Virus record (IMG/VR): IMGVR_UViG_3300020045_009349 | Span: 1-49,368 of that record | Reading direction: 5' to 3' (one strand) | Source: a virus | Taxonomy: Duplodnaviria; Caudoviricetes | Length of the DNA stretch: 49,368 nucleotides | Shown here: positions 1-46,631 of the stretch, piece after piece | Numbering within the stretch: position 1 is the first letter of the stretch | Layout: each line of letters opens with the position of its first letter | The notes under the pieces: generated by a model | The model's database searches: none | Told to the model about the DNA's origin: nothing | What the model saw: the letters and a program-made list of their open reading frames with translations, nothing else | Position numbers and translations under genes: made by a program

Positions 1-86
1 TAACATAACCCACAAGTGGTAAATAAATAATTTGGAGCAAATTTCAACCTGTATTTACAAGTGTATTGTACCGTGATTACTATCAT
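1..86 (-). CDS. Small phage protein, N-terminal part (MIVITVQYTCKYRLKFAPNYLFTTCGLC...), runs off the window edge
   Basis: ATG at 86 with an open frame to position 1. Not in the ORF track because it is truncated. Confidence 0.5.
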   Translation of the reverse strand, partial: MIVITVQYTCKYRLKFAPNYLFTTCGLC

Positions 87-100
87 TTGACTTGTGGTTT

Positions 101-131
101 TATGCTGTTAGCAAGTAGTTATGAGTAATGC
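101..131 (+). other. Array-proximal recombination core (attI-like): GTTAGCAAGTA-GTTATGAGTAATGC
   Basis: 118-131 is the 13/14 reverse complement of 438-451. Two GTTA boxes lie 11 bp apart. Confidence 0.5.
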
Positions 132-514
132 TAATTATCTCGTTCAAAAGTCGATTTTCCTTTTAAATTCGTTCCAAAAATTTCATTTAACGGGTCAATA
201 ACATCTTGTGAAACTCCCATTAATTTTAGTCTTAAATTAGAAATTTCAGTAGTCATTTCTCTTTCTCTTTTTGAAGCATTTCTAACAACTTCATTTAACC
301 CTTCATATCTAAATTCTGCGTGTTCGTAATTTTGTTTAAGTAGTGTGATACTTTTTAAAATAGTCCATTTATGAAAGAATTTAGGAACTCGTTTATAATA
401 CCACCAAAATAAAATGTGATTTGCTTTTAACAACACCGCACTACTCATAACAGCGGTTATAAGCAATTGCCATTTTTGTCTTAAATTTAAAGACCGTTTT
501 GTACTTGTTTTCAT
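131..514 (-). CDS. Cassette 1 hypothetical protein (C-terminal coiled coil)
   Basis: 127-aa ORF. Its start lies inside hairpin 448-575 and its stop abuts core 118-131. Confidence 0.7.
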   Translation of the reverse strand: MKTSTKRSLNLRQKWQLLITAVMSSAVLLKANHILFWWYYKRVPKFFHKWTILKSITLLKQNYEHAEFRYEGLNEVVRNASKREREMTTEISNLRLKLMGVSQDVIDPLNEIFGTNLKGKSTFERDN

Positions 515-586
515 TGTTTATTAATTTGAAGTTTAGGCAGTTTTATTGGCAACTGCTTATAGCCGCAGGACGTTACCTGCAAGTGC
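438..586 (+). repeat. attC-like hairpin site B
   Basis: TAAC(448-451)-AG-CGGTTATAAGCAATTGCCA(454-472)...TGGCAACTGCTTATAGCCG(547-565)-CAGGAC-GTTA(572-575). Confidence 0.8.
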
Positions 587-872
587 TACCTTAGTTCCCA
601 TTTGATAATTTTCGTTTCAGATTTGCAATACAGAGGATGCTTTGGCGAACCATTTTTATTGATGAACAAAGCCATTGCGTTTGGGAACATTTGCGATAAT
701 TCCTTGTCCCTTCTACATTGTTTCACTACTTCAAAATTTCCCCAGGCAAAAACAATGTCCTTGCAAATCGCTCCTATTTCTTTTAACTTCTGTTGGTTTA
801 TCGCAAATTGATGATGTTCATAGGGCACTCCCGATGTATAAAATTCCTTGCACACTTTTGGGTCTGTGCTTT
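586..872 (-). pseudogene. Cassette 2: 5'-deleted DUF1643-family protein
   Basis: In-frame STDPK...IVFAWG...PKHPLY motifs typical of DUF1643. No N-terminal half; the frame is fused directly to the half-site at 873-901. Confidence 0.7.
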
Positions 873-910
873 TGGCAACATCTTATACTAGCGAAACGTT
901 ACCAGTAATG
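873..910 (+). repeat. attC-like half-site C (right arm and core only)
   Basis: TGGCAACATCTTATACTAG-CGAAAC-GTTACCAGTAATG has the same consensus and spacing as the right arms of sites A and B. The partner arm is absent. Confidence 0.75.
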
Positions 911-1324
911 TTACTCAACATTGTCGATATGAAGAAGTTCCCATACATCATCCATACTTGCTTCAATTTCTAAACCAAATTCTTCGGCATCAAAATATCT
1001 AACATAACATTCTCCTTGTTCGTGGTCTATTACGCATTCGGCATCTTCTCCGTTTAATTTAAACGTTCCACATCCTTTGCATTTATCACAAATACTTTCT
1101 TCGGGATATTCTTCTTCTTTCAATGCTCTTGATTGCCATCCTTTAGAATATTGCTCTGATATATAATTAAGAAGTTTTTTTGTTTTCGCTACAAATTCAT
1201 CTTTAGTCATATTTATAGGCTCTTGAATTTCTTCTTTCAAATCAAATAAATCGTCAAAAGAAAAAACACTACTGGTAACATCGTGTATAAGAGATTGCTT
1301 GTTTGGGTCTGTGTTTTCAGGCAT
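911..1324 (-). CDS. Cassette 3 acidic, Cys-rich (CxxCxxC) hypothetical protein
   Basis: 137-aa ORF with CDKCKGC and CVIDHEQGEC. Its start lies inside hairpin 1276-1402. Confidence 0.75.
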   Translation of the reverse strand: MPENTDPNKQSLIHDVTSSVFSFDDLFDLKEEIQEPINMTKDEFVAKTKKLLNYISEQYSKGWQSRALKEEEYPEESICDKCKGCGTFKLNGEDAECVIDHEQGECYVRYFDAEEFGLEIEASMDDVWELLHIDNVE

Positions 1325-1405
1325 CGGGTTTAATTTAAAGATTAGTAATTTTTGGAGGTATTTGGTTCAATCGGCGCAACCTCCCATACACGCCGTCCGT
1401 TATGC
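1267..1405 (+). repeat. attC-like hairpin site A
   Basis: TAAC(1276-1279)-AT-CGTGTATAAGAGATTGC(1282-1298)...GCAACCTCCCATACACG(1376-1392)-CCGTCC-GTTA(1399-1402). The GTTA overlaps the dnaN stop. Confidence 0.8.
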
Positions 1406-2518
1406 TGTAATCAAAACCGGCATTACCAACATCAAAACGCTTTCGAAGTCGTCTTTTTCTGCTAATGGCGTGATCACTCCGGCTCGGTTGGGTTGCGACA
1501 TTTTAATTTTGATTTTTTCTGAAGTCAGGTTGGACAGCATTTCGGCCAGAAAACGAGCATTGAAACCAATTTTCAAATCATCACCATCGCCTTTGCACGT
1601 GAGGTTTTCGACTGCTTTATTGTTGTAATCCTTGTCTTCTGACAAAATGGTTAGCGAATTTCCTTTTTTGTCGAAGATCAATTGGTGCGTGGTTTTGTTC
1701 GCAAAAATCGAAATTCTTTTGATTGATTTTAATAATTCGGCTCTATTGATTTCTAGCGAATTTGGGTTTTCTTTTGGGATAACACCTTCATAGTTGGGGT
1801 ATTTTGCATCTATCAAACGGCAGATCATTTTGGTGCCTTCCATTTCAAATGAAATGTTGGTGCTGTTGTAGCCTATTTTCACTTCTTCGTCTTTTCCCAT
1901 CAATGCGGTGGTCAAAACTTGAATTGGTTTTTTTGGGATGATCAATTGTTTAGCTTCATCGGACTTGATGTCGGTCCTGGTGTATTTTACCAATTTGTTG
2001 GCATCGGTGGCCACGAATACCAATTCATCAGTTTTGAAGTCAAGGCAAACACCGGTTAACATTGCTCTTAGTTCATCGGTTCCGGTGGCAAATAATGTGC
2101 TCGAAAGTGCTTTGTTGAGAATGTGGGCTTCGAGCGTGATTTCTTTGTCCTGTTTTATCTCGGGTGTTTCAGGATATGATTTTGCATCATCAACGGCCAT
2201 TTCGTAGTTTCCGGATAAGCTTTTTATTTCCAGTTCTTTTTCGGAGAAATTCAGGACCAATGATGGTTCGGACAATGATTTTACTATTTCCATAAGCAAA
2301 TCGGCTGCCACGGCAAAGCTTCCGTTTGCTTCGCTGCAAGTGGCTGCGGTTTCTATTTGCAATGTGGTTTCCAGATCGCTGGCAACGATGGTTAATTGGT
2401 GATCCTTGATTTTGAAAAGAAAACATCCCAATACCGGAATGGTGCTTTGTGTTGAAATTACTTTTTTCAAAACATTTAAATTTTTTGCCAATAACTGGCT
2501 CTCGACTGTGATTTTCAT
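1400..2518 (-). CDS. dnaN: DNA polymerase III beta sliding clamp
   Basis: 372 aa; TIPVLGCFLF, ASDLE, RAMLTGV, VATDA, YPNYEGVIP, IGFNARFL and MLVMPV motifs. Confidence 0.97.
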   Translation of the reverse strand: MKITVESQLLAKNLNVLKKVISTQSTIPVLGCFLFKIKDHQLTIVASDLETTLQIETAATCSEANGSFAVAADLLMEIVKSLSEPSLVLNFSEKELEIKSLSGNYEMAVDDAKSYPETPEIKQDKEITLEAHILNKALSSTLFATGTDELRAMLTGVCLDFKTDELVFVATDANKLVKYTRTDIKSDEAKQLIIPKKPIQVLTTALMGKDEEVKIGYNSTNISFEMEGTKMICRLIDAKYPNYEGVIPKENPNSLEINRAELLKSIKRISIFANKTTHQLIFDKKGNSLTILSEDKDYNNKAVENLTCKGDGDDLKIGFNARFLAEMLSNLTSEKIKIKMSQPNRAGVITPLAEKDDFESVLMLVMPVLITA

Positions 2519-2537
2519 AAATTTGATTTTTAATGGT

Positions 2538-3866
2538 TTAGGCTGCTGCTTTTTCTTTGCCTCTCGGCCTTGTTTTGATTACTATTTTTCTAATTTTTTC
2601 GATGTTGCGTTGGACTAATTCAATAATCTTTTCGTGGTGTTCTGTTGATTTATTGCTTAGTCCACGTGATTGTTCAATTTTAATTTCTGGAATTTTTATC
2701 TCTATGGTTTCGGCTCGCTTGCCGTCAACTTTTGCCGATAGTATCAATGATTGTTCCTTGAGATAATATTCGTTGGTATAAACGCAATGGTTGAGTTCGT
2801 CGCCTTCTTCCTTAAATTCGTCAATGCTTTTGAGGATTGCTATTGAAATATTGCCTTTGGTAAATTCTAAATCAAAGAATTTTTGGTTTCGTTCGACGTA
2901 TTCAACAATGGCTTTTTCCAGTTTTTGTTGGCGTTTGATAACTCTCAGCTTTTCGTTTTCTATTTCTTGAAGCCTTTGGATTTCCCTTTTTTTCTTCATC
3001 AACTTGTCGTGTTCTGCTTTCAGGTTCTTTGGACAGACATATTTTGAGTTGCGCAAATCTTTTTTGAAGTATTGAAGCAAGTCCAGGTAATCAAACCACA
3101 TTCCAGCATCCTTGATTTTGTATTTGTTCCTAAAACAGATTTTAATGGAATTCCAATATCTGTTTACGTTGTAGCTGCTGGACAAACAATGACTCAATAA
3201 CGAATATTCTTTTTCTTTTAGAATGGTTTCTGCTTTTGGAGAATTTGGCAATAGCTTTATGGCTTCCAGAAATGTTATTCCGGATAGGTTGGAATTAATA
3301 CCGTATTTTGAATACTCTGGTTTTATTTCGGAATCAGGATGGTATTTTCTGGCATAAACATCATATTTGCTTCTATTCCAGCCTCTGCCTTCCTCTCTAA
3401 TTTCCATTGAACCGGACCAAGAGTCCATACACCAATTGGAATTGTGACTTAATCCATACATCGTTGTTTTGCCGTTTGGCAAGATCCAGTATTGCAGGAT
3501 TTCTTGTAAATAATGCTCAACGGGTTTTCCTTTTTTGTAAGTGGCTATCAATTCAAAGTTTCTGACGATTTGAAATTCTAAATAAACATCGGTGATGGCA
3601 AAATAATTGGTTTGATTGTTGGTTCTTGCCTTTGTTTGCTCGATGGTTAATTTTGAATTGCAATGTGGACAAACAGCCTTTTTTCTTTTTATCAGTTCCA
3701 GTGAGAAGGTTTCGCCACAATCCAGACAAAAAGCGCTGGACTTGTTGGCATATCCTTTGTGCTCTAAACATTCTTTGTAAGCCCATTGTTTTTGGCGCTC
3801 AAATATTTTTGGAAGGTGGCTGCTTAATTCGGCCACCTGAACGTGTAGTTTGGTTCTTGGTTTCAT
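2538..3866 (-). CDS. PcfJ-like protein
   Basis: N-terminal CxxC...CPHC zinc ribbon; C-terminal DYLDLL, PKNLKAEHD, EGDELNHCV and QSRGLSN motifs; follows a pcfK-like gene. Confidence 0.85.
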   Translation of the reverse strand: MKPRTKLHVQVAELSSHLPKIFERQKQWAYKECLEHKGYANKSSAFCLDCGETFSLELIKRKKAVCPHCNSKLTIEQTKARTNNQTNYFAITDVYLEFQIVRNFELIATYKKGKPVEHYLQEILQYWILPNGKTTMYGLSHNSNWCMDSWSGSMEIREEGRGWNRSKYDVYARKYHPDSEIKPEYSKYGINSNLSGITFLEAIKLLPNSPKAETILKEKEYSLLSHCLSSSYNVNRYWNSIKICFRNKYKIKDAGMWFDYLDLLQYFKKDLRNSKYVCPKNLKAEHDKLMKKKREIQRLQEIENEKLRVIKRQQKLEKAIVEYVERNQKFFDLEFTKGNISIAILKSIDEFKEEGDELNHCVYTNEYYLKEQSLILSAKVDGKRAETIEIKIPEIKIEQSRGLSNKSTEHHEKIIELVQRNIEKIRKIVIKTRPRGKEKAAA

Positions 3867-3868
3867 AA

Positions 3869-4396
3869 TCAGGAAAATAAATCTACTTGTTCCACTTCTT
3901 TAGTCTCTTTGGAAACATCCTTCAATTGCTTTTTAGTAGCTTTTTGAACCATTTTCTCTCTTTGCTCCGATACCATTTCATCGATTGCCAATTTTTTAGC
4001 TTCCTGAATGTCTTCTTTGGATAGTTCGATGTTTTCCGAAAGGGTTTTCTTTGCTTCTGTTTTTGCTTCAGAAATAGCCTGTTCCATTGCTTTTTCTTTG
4101 GCCAATGCTTTGTCGTCTTCGGTAAGTTCGACCACGTGATTTACGACTACTCTTGAATTGATGGGCTTTCCGGCTTCCAAATCATCTTCGTCGTAGAAGT
4201 GAACTGCCATTGCATATATTTCTTCGTCTGCAAAGCCGTTGCAACCGCTTTTTTGCACTTGGTTCAGAATGTAAGTGCAGCAGTCTTCAATGTTTTTGTT
4301 TTCCTTTTTGAGCGTTTCTGCAAATAATGGATCGTTGTCGGCCAGTTTTTGCAAATGGTCCTGAATTGTTTTTTTGAATGGGTCTGATGTTTTCAT
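3869..4396 (-). CDS. PcfK-like / AcrIIA9-family protein
   Basis: FKKTIQDHL...LFA...KENKNIEDCCTYILNQVQKSGCNGFADEEIYAMAVHFYDE...VVVNHVVELTE matches the PcfK family, which includes AcrIIA9. Confidence 0.85.
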   Translation of the reverse strand: MKTSDPFKKTIQDHLQKLADNDPLFAETLKKENKNIEDCCTYILNQVQKSGCNGFADEEIYAMAVHFYDEDDLEAGKPINSRVVVNHVVELTEDDKALAKEKAMEQAISEAKTEAKKTLSENIELSKEDIQEAKKLAIDEMVSEQREKMVQKATKKQLKDVSKETKEVEQVDLFS

Positions 4397-4448
4397 AAAA
4401 TTTTTGTTTTTTGTCCTCGACGACAGTTAATAATTTGATTAAAAATGC

Positions 4449-4542
4449 AAAAAGGCTGTAAAATTCACCAAGTCTCACTTTGGTTTCAATTACAGCCTAA
4501 TTAAATAGGTTTTTAAGTTTCGTATAGTGTGAGACTGAAACT
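4449..4542 (-). promoter_or_regulatory. Leader RNA: small hairpin plus terminator-like hairpin with complementary loops
   Basis: Stem AGTTTC/GAAACT (4516-4542) has a loop containing GTCTCAC. Stem AGGCTGTAA/TTACAGCCT plus T-run (4449-4498) has an apical GTGAGAC. Confidence 0.55.
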
Positions 4543-4706
4543 GTATTTCTGCGAGTCTTTCCTCGCTGTCAGAATGCTTTCTCCGTTTAGTAAATATTCC
4601 CGTCGGTCTTGTCCTTTCTCTATTCTTTCCAAGATGTCATCAGTTTGAATAGTCTGCCTATTTCACGTAAGATAATCGCATTCGTCGTTTCTCTATTGGT
4701 GGGTTG

Positions 4707-4780
4707 TTGCGACAGCAGGACTCGAACCTGCGAACTTCTGGTTATGAGCCAGACGAGATAGCCAACTTCTCCACATCGCG
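4707..4780 (-). tRNA. tRNA-Met(CAT), initiator-like
   Basis: Cloverleaf: C1xA72 mismatch, A11-U24, anticodon arm TCTGG-CTCATAA-CCAGA, T arm GCAGG-TTCGAGT-CCTGC; no encoded CCA. Confidence 0.9.
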
Positions 4781-4791
4781 TTATTTAATTA

Positions 4792-4847
4792 CAAATATAA
4801 AAATAAATGTAACATAATTAGCTACAATTGTAATAAATTATATTCTT
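4792..4847 (-). promoter_or_regulatory. Bacteroidota primary-sigma promoter with tandem TGTAAC-N7-GYTACA operators
   Basis: TATATTTG -7 box (4792-4799); boxes at 4808-4826 and 4829-4847; near-copy of 9552-9607. Confidence 0.7.
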
Positions 4848-5572
4848 ATTTTTGAATAATTAAACTCACAAAATTCTGGGTCGTAAATCCCTAACTTCAA
4901 ATTGACTTCGTTTCTTAGTTCAATCCGTTCGTAAGGCGTTTTTTGTTCCTCGTTTCGTTTGAGCTCTGAACGGATGAATGTTGCTTTCAATGCCAATTCA
5001 ATCATATCTCCTTTGGTCAAGTGCAGCGCTTTGTGTCGTTGAATGAATTCTACATATTCAAAATAATCGTTTCCGTATCTTTCAATCAATCCCAAACGGT
5101 ATTTTATGGGATCACCGCTTTTATGGTGGTTGCTGGCGAAAGATTGAATATGAATGTTGTGCAGGTTCAAAGCCGTGGTTCTGTTGGCTCCAACGCTTAC
5201 ATAATGACCTCCGTTCATCTTGCCAAAATCTCCGGTTGCAATGCAAGATTGGCCGTAATCAATTATCCTTGCTATTTCGTTGAAAATGGGTTGAAGGTAT
5301 TTAGCGCGATATTTGTCGGCACTCATTAATTCAATTTTGGTTTCGGAATCTTTTTTATTTTGCTCAATTCGGTTTTCCTTTTGGACTTTTGCCTTGGCAT
5401 AAATCATTGATTTTTCCATCTTGATTTTGCCATTCTCGGAGTTCAAAAGCCAGTTGGAATAACAGCCACACATTTTACCAAGGCCATACACCCGATGCTT
5501 TGTTTTGTGGCCACAACCAAAACCTTTTGCCAATCCTGTTCCAACACACGGTTTTTCTTTTAGCTCTATCAT
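4838..5572 (-). CDS. ninG: NinG-like (Rap) recombination endonuclease
   Basis: RIIDYGQSCIATG...GGHYVSVG...LHNIHIQSFASN...YRLGLIERYG. Confidence 0.8.
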   Translation of the reverse strand: MIELKEKPCVGTGLAKGFGCGHKTKHRVYGLGKMCGCYSNWLLNSENGKIKMEKSMIYAKAKVQKENRIEQNKKDSETKIELMSADKYRAKYLQPIFNEIARIIDYGQSCIATGDFGKMNGGHYVSVGANRTTALNLHNIHIQSFASNHHKSGDPIKYRLGLIERYGNDYFEYVEFIQRHKALHLTKGDMIELALKATFIRSELKRNEEQKTPYERIELRNEVNLKLGIYDPEFCEFNYSKIRI

Positions 5573-5922
5573 CGAAGTACTTTTTTGCAGATTCCTTCAA
5601 TGCTTTTTTGGTCTTTATTGTAGGCATTTATGATAGTTACAATGTTAGCCATTTTCCAGATCGGAACCGATGATATAGTTTTGTAAAACTCATCTACCAC
5701 ATCATAGATAGCTGAAGTAGCTTCCTCTTCTTTGTTGATTGCTTTTTCGAAGTGTTTTGACTCTACTTCACTAAGTTTTAAAATAAAATTATTCACGAAG
5801 TTTTTGAAAGCTCCTGTAACAAATGTTTTTGTTTTGCTTTCTGCCTTAAAATCAGAAAGGTAATTCAGCAGCACTTGTGCGAGAATTTTAATATGTATTA
5901 ATTTTGCGTCTTGTGGTATCAT
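5569..5922 (-). CDS. Hypothetical protein
   Basis: 117-aa ORF, translationally coupled in the operon. Confidence 0.7.
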   Translation of the reverse strand: MIPQDAKLIHIKILAQVLLNYLSDFKAESKTKTFVTGAFKNFVNNFILKLSEVESKHFEKAINKEEEATSAIYDVVDEFYKTISSVPIWKMANIVTIINAYNKDQKSIEGICKKVLR

Positions 5923-5931
5923 AATTCAGTT

Positions 5932-6144
5932 TTAGATTGTTTTCTTAAAAAATTGGGGATATTCTTCTCTTAAAAATTCCACTTCAAAAGGATAAAGTTT
6001 GTGGCTTGATTTGATCGTGTAATCATCATTGACCGTTATCGTTACTTCTTCGGCATTGTTCCTGAAAATGAAATAGGTATTTACAAGGCTCTTGGCTTTT
6101 ACAAATACCACATTGTCGCTGGGGGTGAGTTGCACGATTTTCAT
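5932..6144 (-). CDS. Hypothetical protein
   Basis: 70-aa ORF fitting the operon spacing. Confidence 0.65.
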   Translation of the reverse strand: MKIVQLTPSDNVVFVKAKSLVNTYFIFRNNAEEVTITVNDDYTIKSSHKLYPFEVEFLREEYPQFFKKTI

Positions 6145-6146
6145 AA

Positions 6147-6887
6147 TCAGAATTTAAAATTACCCTTGACCACCAACCTTTTTTGTCTTAAATAATCCAA
6201 ATAAGGTTGAAGCTCCGGTTTTCGTTCCCAATCCTTAATGGTATCTTCCAACATTTGACGATCCATATTTTGAATCATTTCGTCAATTTCTTGGTGCATT
6301 TTTTCAGTCTGTTCCTTTTTTGCTTTTTCGGCTTTTCGTTTTTCGTAGAATTGATGGACTGCATTGCTTCGAATGTCGTTTTCGGCTTGAGTGCTGCTGG
6401 TTTCTTTCTTTTTTATACGCTCAAATTCTATGTATTTTTTTTCGAGATATTCCGGCATCCACTTTGCCAGCACGTTTTGGCCGTCAAGTTTGTAATCTTT
6501 TCCATCCCCAATAATTCCCTGTCTAACTTGTTTGAGCATCAATACCACATCTTCAATAGTTTCATACGGATACTTTTCGACAATATCCGATGCTAATAAA
6601 GCTGATTGGGATTGAGTTAATGATTTTCCAACATTGAAATTGGCGTTAAACCGGTTGAGCAAATAACAAATAGCTGTTATTGTGCCAATTTCGCCAACTG
6701 TTTTTTCTAGTTTTTTCAATTTGGTTCCGTCGATGGCGTGAGATAAACTCAGGTTTTTTTCAAAGACAATCAACCCAACTTCATTGTTGGACGCCAAACA
6801 TTGCATTAACTGCATTGACTGCTGATTGCTTATGGTTAGCATCTGCTCTTTGTGAATTGAGACTTCGTACATTTTCTCTGTTTCCAT
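6147..6887 (-). CDS. Replication-associated hypothetical protein (possible helicase-loader-like)
   Basis: 246-aa ORF directly after the initiator gene; start uncertain because it overlaps 6781-6887. Confidence 0.6.
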   Translation of the reverse strand: METEKMYEVSIHKEQMLTISNQQSMQLMQCLASNNEVGLIVFEKNLSLSHAIDGTKLKKLEKTVGEIGTITAICYLLNRFNANFNVGKSLTQSQSALLASDIVEKYPYETIEDVVLMLKQVRQGIIGDGKDYKLDGQNVLAKWMPEYLEKKYIEFERIKKKETSSTQAENDIRSNAVHQFYEKRKAEKAKKEQTEKMHQEIDEMIQNMDRQMLEDTIKDWERKPELQPYLDYLRQKRLVVKGNFKF

Positions 6888-7620
6888 AATTATCTTCTAA
6901 AATTTTAATAAAATTGGCTGGTTTGATAATCCAATCAAAAGTAGCCGTCCAGCTTTCTTTGTTGTCACCTTGTAGAAATGGGGAATCCCGTGTTTTTTGA
7001 ATTACCGACAGAATCGATTCTTTGCCGTGTTGCTTTTCAAGAAGTTTAATCCTGTTTTTTCTGGCATCGGACATTTTTTTTACTTCTGGCAAAACCCCTC
7101 GGTTTGCATTAAAAAAAGAAAGAAGTTTATCAAAATCAATCTTGTGGGATGGAAGTTGATTTGGAAAATCAACAACTCCGTTAGGAGTATCTTCTTTTGT
7201 TTCTTTTTTTAAAAGAATATCAGTTACAGTATCATTTACATTAACAGTAACATTATCATTAACAGTTACACGTTCGTTTGGTTCGTTTTTTGAACCATTG
7301 GTTCGTTTGGTTCGATTTGGTTCAATTTGGTTCGATTCAGGAACAACTATTTTTCTTGCTTCACCGCTTTTTAAACCGGCTAATCGTCCTAATTCTTTTC
7401 GCCTTTCCTTGGTGGTTTCGTATTTGATTAAATCACGCTTCATTTGTAGTTTAATAGGCTCAAAAACAAGCTCTACCATCAAATCTTCTACCACGGGGTT
7501 TTCATCATTTACATAGGATAAAATCGTCATAAACAATTCTCCCTGTTTGTCTTTTGGCATCTTTCTAACGGTATGAATTAGATCAGAATACAACACAAAT
7601 GATTTTTTATCTTCTGCCAT
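6781..7620 (-). CDS. Phage replication initiator (DUF6291-like N-terminus)
   Basis: KKSFVLYSD...QGELFMTILSY N-terminus; NVTVNV low-complexity linker; WTATFDWIIKPANFIKILEDNY C-terminal domain. Confidence 0.8.
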   Translation of the reverse strand: MAEDKKSFVLYSDLIHTVRKMPKDKQGELFMTILSYVNDENPVVEDLMVELVFEPIKLQMKRDLIKYETTKERRKELGRLAGLKSGEARKIVVPESNQIEPNRTKRTNGSKNEPNERVTVNDNVTVNVNDTVTDILLKKETKEDTPNGVVDFPNQLPSHKIDFDKLLSFFNANRGVLPEVKKMSDARKNRIKLLEKQHGKESILSVIQKTRDSPFLQGDNKESWTATFDWIIKPANFIKILEDNYGNRENVRSLNSQRADANHKQSAVNAVNAMFGVQQ

Positions 7621-7628
7621 ATCAATTT

Positions 7629-8777
7629 TTACTTTTTAAATGGGACATTAGTTAGTTGTCGGCCATTGTTCCAGATAGCAAAACGGCCTTCGGTATCGAC
7701 TTCAATTTTCATTGTTTCAATCTTTCCAAATTGGTTTAAATTGCCACCTAAATCAACTACCCAAGCATTGCTTTTATTGGGATGAATTCGCATGGCGCGA
7801 CCAACGATTTGATAAAACAAAGACAACGACATCGTGGATCTGGCCATCAATACTGCTTCGAGTTCCGGATAATCAAACCCGGTGGTTAAAACACCCACAT
7901 TCACCACACATTTGATGATTCCTTTCTTGAATCTTGAAAGGATGCGTTCGCGTTCCTCTTTCTTGGTATCGGATGTTAAAAGAACAGATCCTGGAATACG
8001 TTTTACCACTTGCTGGGCTTCGCTGATCAAGGCACAAAAAATCAATAAATTAGGTTTTTTAGAAAGAATGTGCATGGCATATTTCACGATTCGGCTAGGC
8101 ATATCGATTGACTTGTAATACCTACTTAATGAAGCGGGTGTATAATCGGTTCCTGAACTGTTTAATTCTAGTTTGGAGCGATCAATTACGTCAAAGGAGT
8201 AATACTCCAGCTTTGCCAAAAAACCTGCGTCAAACAGCGTATTATTTTGAACGTAGTACAAGATTTTGTTGAAAATTCGTGGCGTGCTTCTGGTCAGGAA
8301 CGTAAGTTGTGGTCCTTCGCTGGTTTGCGAAAGTCGGTACGGTGTGGCGGTTAATCCCAAAACGTTGGCTTCCGGAAAATGATTGATAAACTCCTGGTAC
8401 ATTCCACCGTCCGAGTTTACCAAATGACATTCATCTATCAGGATATTTTTTAACCCAATGAATAAATGTTTTTTGTTAATGATGCTTCCAATGGTGCAAA
8501 AGGTAACTCTGCTAATGTATTTTTCACCAGCCGATGCGCTGTAAATTGAAGCTTTTCCATATTTAGAATACTTTTCGTAGTTCTGTTCCAGAATTTCTTT
8601 TGACGGCTGGAGGATAACCGTTTTACCCTCCAGCGGTGCTACTAAATTAGCAATAACAATAGATTTTCCAGCGCCTGTTGGTAGAACTATAACGGCATTG
8701 TCGTTTGACTTGCCTTGTAAATATTCCACTCCTAAACGTGTCGAATCTGCTTGATATGGCCTTAATTGAAATCCCAT
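7629..8777 (-). CDS. SF2 DEAD/DEAH-box helicase (RadD/UvsW-like)
   Basis: LRPYQ, LPTGAGKS, DECH, GLTATP, LTTGFD, QIVGRAMR. Confidence 0.93.
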   Translation of the reverse strand: MGFQLRPYQADSTRLGVEYLQGKSNDNAVIVLPTGAGKSIVIANLVAPLEGKTVILQPSKEILEQNYEKYSKYGKASIYSASAGEKYISRVTFCTIGSIINKKHLFIGLKNILIDECHLVNSDGGMYQEFINHFPEANVLGLTATPYRLSQTSEGPQLTFLTRSTPRIFNKILYYVQNNTLFDAGFLAKLEYYSFDVIDRSKLELNSSGTDYTPASLSRYYKSIDMPSRIVKYAMHILSKKPNLLIFCALISEAQQVVKRIPGSVLLTSDTKKEERERILSRFKKGIIKCVVNVGVLTTGFDYPELEAVLMARSTMSLSLFYQIVGRAMRIHPNKSNAWVVDLGGNLNQFGKIETMKIEVDTEGRFAIWNNGRQLTNVPFKK

Positions 8778-46547: not shown

Positions 46548-46631
46548 TGGGAGCAGATGGACTCGAACCACCAATCTATGCAGATTACTAGATTTACAGT
46601 CTAGCGCCTTTTCCAGCTGAGCAATACTCCC
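46548..46631 (-). tRNA. tRNA-Tyr(GTA)
   Basis: Acceptor GGGAGTA/TGCTCCC, anticodon arm CTAGA-CTGTAAA-TCTAG, long variable arm AATCT-GCAT-AGATT, T arm GGTGG-TTCGAGT-CCATC. Confidence 0.92.

Follow-up and report, generated by a model that had tools for sequence, protein, structure and literature searches.

Do the hairpins at the left end of this phage genome provide the starts of the genes that they accompany, and at which core are these genes exchanged? The sequence analysed here (referred to as the window) is a complete 49,368-bp virus record. A cassette array lies at its left end and extends off the contig start. Canonical integron cassettes are usually co-oriented with the top strand of attC and end at or near it. 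A sequence-only reading of the window had described a different layout, in which the genes run antisense to three attC-like sites, start inside the hairpin in a conserved frame and might be exchanged at the minus-strand GTT. From the analysis below, we consider it probable that the locus is a short integron-like array of antisense genes, in which a hairpin heads each gene, likely gives it its start and its first 15-22 codons, and moves with it by exchange at the right-arm G^TT.

The window phage is temperate; terminase, portal, major head, tape measure, endolysin, repressor and a prophage-type integrase are present, and the window's own integrase is of the Phage_int_SAM_5 type. Two tRNA genes were found (4707-4780 and 46548-46631). 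The host is probably a Flavobacteria-type bacterium, because homologues of gene 1 carry the names Chryseobacterium and Aquimarina and the sites have matches in Flavobacterium phages. A minus-strand replication block codes for PcfK, PcfJ and, at its end, dnaN; RecT-like and NinB-like proteins are also encoded. The features of the array, as derived from our analysis, are:

1-121, plus strand: array head, truncated at the contig start; an imperfect palindrome (1-110) is followed by AAGTAG^TTA with its G at 118; candidate attI-like entry site
118-575, plus strand: cassette 1, the mobile unit, from the G^TT at 118 to the G^TT at 572; limits from L239, L240 and contig ends in run X2
118-131, plus strand: entry end of cassette 1, 14 nt, complementary to 438-451 but for one A.C / G.T position
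131-514, minus strand: gene 1, 127 aa (ORF, homologues); first 22 codons predicted from hairpin loop, arm and core
438-575, plus strand: site 1; extended left core 438-451, arms 453-472 and 547-566, right core GTTA 572-575
515-534, minus strand: putative A-rich initiation context of ATG514, within the loop; A at -3, -12 and -13 (determinants from the accessible text of PMC6847099)
572-901, plus strand: cassette 2, damaged; entry end 572-585, no left core, orphan right arm 872-901
586-870, minus strand: truncated DUF1643 gene, of which the C-terminal half is present (positions 76-134 of the 134 in the Pfam model); its junction with the orphan arm lies near 870
898-1402, plus strand: cassette 3, from the G^TT at 898 to the G^TT at 1399; ends 898-911 and 1266-1279 complementary
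911-1324, minus strand: gene 3, 137 aa, Cys-containing (ORF, homologues); first 16 codons predicted from the hairpin
1266-1402, plus strand: site 3, weaker stem; left core TAAC at 1276, right core GTTA at 1399
1400-2518, minus strand: resident beta-clamp gene (dnaN); its TAA stop is the last core

Because the dnaN stop is the last core, the array would start directly after dnaN in the transcript. On the minus strand of 1-2700 there are two matches to the promoter consensus TAnnTTTG, one with a TTG near -33. A 9-nt repeat found at 100-108 and 1400-1408 has three copies within the window. The opposite contig end (47786-49330) holds a ParB-like plus DNA methyltransferase gene. Since a dnaN relative (L002) has about 2 kb of small genes between its ParB-like/methyltransferase gene and dnaN, DNA left of position 1 is probably missing from the record; two exact-pattern scans for the sequence left of position 1 gave no match. 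Neither dnaN relative (L001, L002) has an array behind dnaN. They were considered as carriers of an empty site, which was rejected as they have different genes there and no matching empty site.

Rechecking the positions, peptides and stop distances of the sequence-only reading revealed no errors. ATG514 and ATG1324 lie between the arms, 21 and 15 codons ahead of the core valine (LITA-V-MSSA and LIHD-V-TSSV), and the cassette stops at 131, 586 and 911 lie 13, 14 and 13 nt from the GTTA at 118, 572 and 898. Of the three attC-like sites, numbers 1 and 3 are complete, and the middle one (872-901) amounts to a right arm. The core at 118 had been taken for the end of a standard hairpin; it is not one and resembles the head site of the array.

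In attC sites the two arms are nearly equal. Site 1 has its TAAC at 448 and its GTTA at 572, and its 20-nt arms are free of gaps with 18 of 20 positions paired; 14 of 20 arm positions are paired in site 3. Both are imperfect palindromes with AAC/GTT cores and inner boxes, as in attC. Folding energy alone did not differ significantly from that of shuffled sequences for sites 1 and 3 (z -1.3/-1.7 and +1.5/+0.3). A frame-blind caller using cores, TATA-type boxes and stem detects both sites; it called 122 sites in the collected loci plus the window and none in the same 1.31 Mb after shuffling. Flavo-1 RNA, which we took to be a candidate identity for the hairpins, was rejected, as an Rfam search at gathering scores with Flavo-1 included gave no match. 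In runs X1 and X2, hairpins similar to site 3 are found by themselves, attached to other bodies. The loop of site 3 encodes NTDP (1304-1318), which the STDP codons of the DUF1643 gene (856-870) resemble. As to the function of genes 1 and 3, Pfam gave one sub-threshold match at most, PHROGs none and the ESM Atlas nothing usable.

In cassette 2, the best left-core partner of the entry end pairs at just 8 of 14 positions, and the first ~75-80 codons of the DUF1643 gene are absent when compared with the full-length relatives L441 and L442. This deletion may have arisen via microhomology with a hairpin loop.

Further viral sites were collected by two pattern scans (at least 118 stretches each, with many chance matches) and three protein-led scans. 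These yielded at least 107 distinct sites, or 97 after merging identical left ends, including the two sites of the window and three from bacterial contigs. The 37 sites without a clear upstream partner were left out and 60 were classified, one of them on a short MAG contig (L270). As a chromosomal control, Flavobacteriaceae genomes were searched; the site pattern matched 56 of 251, many by chance, and several carry arrays. The control comprises 111 called sites, mostly from six genomes, 79 of them with a partner. (An earlier contig pattern scan, mostly chance matches with 3 called sites in 120 loci, was replaced by these whole-genome searches.) Among the matches listed, 59 of the 60 viral cassettes are antisense to their site, so that they, like the window, lack the order of a co-oriented gene followed by attC, which is found in 75 of the 79 chromosomal cases, with 4 of 79 antisense. 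L172 was scored antisense by rule, its longest ORF being sense by one codon. The antisense layout first described for the window thus holds well beyond it and is specific to phages. Site polarity is unchanged in the chromosomes; the same hairpins are placed after their genes there, in the ordinary layout. Some chromosomal arrays are superintegron-like in size, with at least 37 sites in G068:C14 (L410-L413) and about 18 in G112:C14 (L407-L409). Hairpins that are 97% identical are found with different bodies in two genera, on a Riemerella anatipestifer contig (L350) and in Arenibacter (L328).

Where do the antisense genes start? Of the 59 antisense viral cassettes, 20 have their start downstream of the core; the other 39 begin within the hairpin, using the Val frame in 34 cases and the other two frames in 3 and 2 (all among the matches listed). 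The frame, which had been described as conserved, is therefore strongly preferred but not invariant. One search pattern itself closes one frame, so the fair count is the 21 loop starts found otherwise, 18 of which are in the Val frame. This excess has P = 6e-7 when chromosomal arms serve as the null and P = 0.001 with viral downstream-start arms, values that overstate certainty because the sites are related. The antisense Val frame is closed in the arm in 10 of 96 viral sites (matches listed) vs 54 of 111 chromosomal ones, and 50 of 94 viral (matches listed) vs 2 of 111 chromosomal sites have an ATG in an open Val frame, 12 codons or more ahead of the core.

According to the accessible text of PMC6847099, A at -3, -12 and -13 boosts initiation in F. 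johnsoniae. Loop ATGs have A at these positions in 76, 79 and 82% of 33 viral-set cases (matches listed); the corresponding values are 59, 59 and 56% for 32 genes of the window phage and 39, 29 and 34% for antisense ATGs in chromosomal loops. As the loops are 56% A overall, the initiation signal is diluted. No ATG is present in the 10 codons after the core in 23 of 33 Val-frame cassettes, and an ATG follows the GTT immediately in 9 of 33 (matches listed).

In 22 of 30 database proteins homologous to gene 3, the query counted, a V-x-S-S leader is found 12-19 residues in; several others begin near a DD-F motif. A copy of gene 3 without a hairpin also exists (L254). The first in-frame ATG, GTG or TTG after the core of gene 3 comes 13 codons on, beyond the DDLF motif, which is conserved in the free (hairpin-free) forms. 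The start at MTKDEF, which would have spoken against a loop start, was rejected because the residues upstream of it are conserved among homologues. That gene 3 needs the loop ATG, and that it and its family start in the hairpin, is well supported by these comparisons. The view of the hairpin as a start module stands to this extent; for gene 1, ATG448 directly after the GTT is a possible start. The 66 homologues of gene 1 comprise 16 with the leader, 40 short ones and 10 that are neither clearly, and 9 of the 16 long ones have V-M. Among 11 of 14 inspected gene 1 loci, three are cassettes and eight are hairpin-free.

We regard it as unlikely that the loop ATGs of these mobile cassettes are incidental, with translation starting at the core or directly behind it and with the open Val frame as a by-product of the inherited site. 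This explanation would fit the position of ATG448, which is that of the native start of gene 1. It would also fit the downstream-start cassettes, in which the Val frame is likewise open (closed in the arm in 1 of 20, matches listed), so that part of the bias may be inherited site sequence; moreover, the site consensus often closes the other two frames (56 of 96 and 67 of 96, matches listed). However, it leaves gene 3 without any start codon until well past the core, the Val frame is closed in half of the chromosomal sites and a loop ATG is almost absent from them, and the context of ATG448, which sits at the stem base, has A-12 only. Two filifjonk9-1 methyltransferases start in loops and have no Met from the core to the first conserved strand. 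Coupling to a leader peptide was rejected as a rule for the downstream-start cassettes, since it fits 3 of 20. In the short 83-84-nt sites of L005, L010, L067 and L178, the Val-frame peptide stops at or overlaps the cargo ATG, which suggests translational coupling to the cargo.

The limits of shared DNA indicate what moves. Window positions 118-575 are 95% identical, over exactly that span, to part of an unrelated 93-kb viral contig (L239), and L240 matches with 91% identity and the same limits. In run X2, too, contigs are bounded by 118 and 575, and contigs in runs X1 and X14 match 1-121/122 and then end or diverge. (The sequencing runs matched at most 11% of words and were used for contig ends only, not for habitat or expression.) As cassette 1 recurs elsewhere with identical ends, the exchange point is the plus-strand right-arm G^TT and not the minus-strand GTT. 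The GTTA at 107 was rejected as head crossover because the shared DNA begins at 118. In a comparison of eight cultured Flavobacterium sister phages, which all have a single common head site, near-identical blocks within the array or to its right showed 62 distinct ends, 49 of them at a right-core GTTA, 4 at one left core and 9 elsewhere. Since the blocks end at the right core, the mobile unit is the gene plus the hairpin heading that gene. The idea of an incoming ORF being fused to a resident start has to be abandoned, as the hairpin travels with its gene and cassette movement creates no fusion. As far as sequence comparison goes, exchange at the right core and the antisense layout are both demonstrated; left-core joins exist and look like rarer events of cassette building or hairpin swapping.

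Among the Muminvirus, Lillamyvirus and Hattifnattvirus sister phages (L433, L435-L440; ~1350-8000 each), whole cassettes differ behind the fixed head site, and many of the swapped ones are DNA methyltransferases. Two unrelated hairpins are found on one gene body at L432:5735-5840, L436:4527-4632 and L433:7026-7131.

The cassette ends are complementary. Positions 438-451 pair with the 14 nt that follow G118, and positions 1266-1279 with the 14 nt that follow G898; the left cores of sites 1 and 3 do not pair with their own right flanks. A relative of cassette 3 (L253) has another core triplet, which co-varies at both ends. The left core has a variable triplet; among the matches listed, its pairing partner is the upstream core in 54 of 60 viral cases and its own right flank in 6 of 60; in chromosomes, upstream-core pairing is found in 76 of 79. 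Pairing of the ends is 82-100% through position 14 and falls to background level by position 16. Position 11 is A.C on the top strand (G.T on the bottom) in 63 of 63 viral (matches listed) and 78 of 78 chromosomal ends. The partners had been picked on positions 1-13; a normal pair at 11 was equally allowed and was never observed. In one filifjonk9-1 cassette only the left-core triplet differs and is unpaired with the upstream core, so this cassette may be fixed at its position. Of the two strands at the predicted circle junction, the minus strand folds more stably (-25.2 vs -21.6 and -18.0 vs -13.9 kcal/mol).

Traces of cassette building were sought in 142 body/hairpin pairs. The hairpin is shared at 90% or more by unrelated bodies in 21 pairs, three of which have near-identical translated leaders in frame on different proteins; in 3 pairs the same body stands under an unrelated hairpin. 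Leader peptides on unrelated proteins, as predicted by the sequence-only reading, do therefore occur, and the hairpin leader accounts for the recurring N-terminal motif on unrelated phage proteins. Hairpin-free homologues start at the position of the core, so the leader likely replaced the native start at cassette formation. Since members of one gene family occur inside and outside cassettes, and the junctions lie at the stop codon and a few codons past the start, the building step leaves a readable trace. The distance from stop to entry G in the viral set is 1 nt in 18 and 13 nt in 22 of the 59 rows (matches listed), together 40. We infer that genes are set into a 14-nt shell of complementary ends.

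Two other ways of exchange have to be weighed. It is very unlikely that the RecT-like system of the phage moves the cassettes without a dedicated recombinase, the repeated hairpins serving as substrates for homologous or microhomology recombination. The RecT-like and NinB-like proteins would be at hand, the window holds no cassette integrase, and some of the nine remaining block ends lie inside genes or at the start of the right arm. However, the block ends cluster at one GTT, the same sites stand behind a tyrosine recombinase in chromosomes, and homologous exchange needs neither a cassette-specific 14-nt complementarity nor a fixed head site. Least probable of all is that the minus-strand GTT is the working crossover and bodies are routinely swapped under a resident hairpin start, for which the 21 and 3 pairs and the body/hairpin swap at the left core of one Muminvirus locus (the 4 of 62 ends) might speak, but which, as the main route, is already contradicted by the whole-cassette ends at the right core and by triplet pairing that tracks the upstream core.

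A candidate enzyme for right-core exchange is found in the chromosomes. Four arrays have an Xer-like recombinase directly upstream, co-directional and followed by the head G^TT. It lacks the IntI insertion (about 41 residues fewer; 18 where VchIntIA has 59) and scores under the TIGR02249 cut-off. Homologues are present in 30 of 61 Flavobacterium genomes; a hairpin of the same polarity lies within 1.5 kb downstream in 15 of the 22 with at least 900 bp downstream, and upstream in 0 of 30. In viruses, a homologue lies on the gene strand near a site in three distinct contexts (L003, L013/L077 and L183). At L077:154-1113 and L003:244-1086 it heads a viral array, on the same strand as the antisense cassette genes, and would therefore be the last gene of the operon. 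No homologue was found in the 49,368-bp window, and the cultured phages gave no match to the viral homologue at 1e-30. The window has two full sites and no array integrase, and the contig starts 117 nt left of position 118. A recurrent NAG^TT head site is found beside the chromosomal integrase and in phages. Position 118 shares its last bases only and lacks the TATAT motif of the other head sites, so the attI-like assignment is weak. In one array behind a chromosomal integrase (L414:6883-7080, L414:7259-10644), a probable cytosine methyltransferase and a probable restriction-type gene (from translation only) are followed by heavy-metal genes.

For an integron-like array with exchange at the right core, we propose the following mechanism. 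The minus strand, which is also the coding strand, would fold and recombine as in integrons, and excision would give a circle in which the two 14-nt ends of the cassette are paired with each other. The recombination would be carried out by the Xer-like enzyme without IntI insertion known from the chromosomal arrays, either borrowed from the host or encoded beyond the contig end. Cassettes would enter at the head site at 118 and would be read on the replication-region transcript, from dnaN toward 118. For a new cassette to arise, a free phage gene would be cut twice, at the stop codon and a few codons inside its 5' end, and set between two complementary 14-nt ends, with the hairpin leader taking the place of the native start. 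Because of the opposite polarity, cassettes of the host would not be expressed in the phage, nor those of the phage in a host array.

The polarity split of 59:1 (matches listed) vs 4:75 suggests two gene pools that share one recombinase. Since Muminvirus cassettes carry DNA methyltransferases, which have been linked to plating efficiency (available text of PMC7077304), the system may tune phage host range. A wider reading, toward which we lean somewhat less than against it, is that Bacteroidota phages maintain a mirror-polarity cassette pool with a non-IntI system, build new cassettes from their own free genes and keep host defence cassettes silent. If so, reversed polarity would let a phage borrow the host enzyme with the host defence cassettes silent. 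Cassette genesis, named as an open question for integrons in the accessible part of PMC8618304, would then be readable from sequence, since free and cassette forms of a gene coexist.

No description of the site family, the polarity split or the hairpin-encoded starts was found in the literature, with most subscription papers lying outside the search. The phage arrays share with integrons and CALINs (as far as covered by the available text of PMC4889954) the palindromic site with AAC/GTT cores, the right-core G^TT exchange and the predicted pairing of the cassette ends in the circle, as well as a putative fixed entry site and, in chromosomal arrays, a tyrosine recombinase at the head. They differ in that the phage gene is antisense, so that the hairpin heads the gene and would encode its N-terminus. 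The right spacer of the phage sites is 4-5 nt vs 1 nt on the left, the ends pair over 14 nt, and site 1 has no bulged base, its 20-nt arms being ungapped. Extrahelical bases and an unpaired central spacer, listed as attC features in the accessible text of PMC8946536, were not found in these sites, the register of which is fixed by the caller. The recombinase linked to the arrays has no IntI insertion and points in the same direction as the cassette genes.

The closest described case is the CALIN of Polaribacter phage P12002L, in which 'divergent directions' were seen and explained as mosaicism (Qi et al. 2023, PMC9892861, accessible text). Its attC1, according to the same text the sole site of six that was not recombined by IntI1, is a short site of the window-type family, with the polarity inferred here, and antisense to methyltransferase genes. 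The attC2 of that study overlaps the putative P12002L head site, read in the other direction. Antisense genes, a Bacteroidota site family and hairpin-encoded starts do not appear in the main text of PMC9892861. ORF-11/17/18 in attI1 and short ORFs in attC (PMC8876359, in part) are similar in that a recombination site bears translation-start signals for a cassette. Those are short, coupled peptides on the sense strand, however, whereas the phage site would encode the N-terminus of its cargo in antisense and travel along with it. Synthetic protein-coding attC sites (Nivina et al. 2020, PMC7439510, accessible part) likewise combine attC structure and a reading frame in one sequence; they were engineered, and the phage hairpins would be a natural, widespread case. 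By the tests of IntI and gene orientation, the phage system is not a member of the integrons, but it functions like one.
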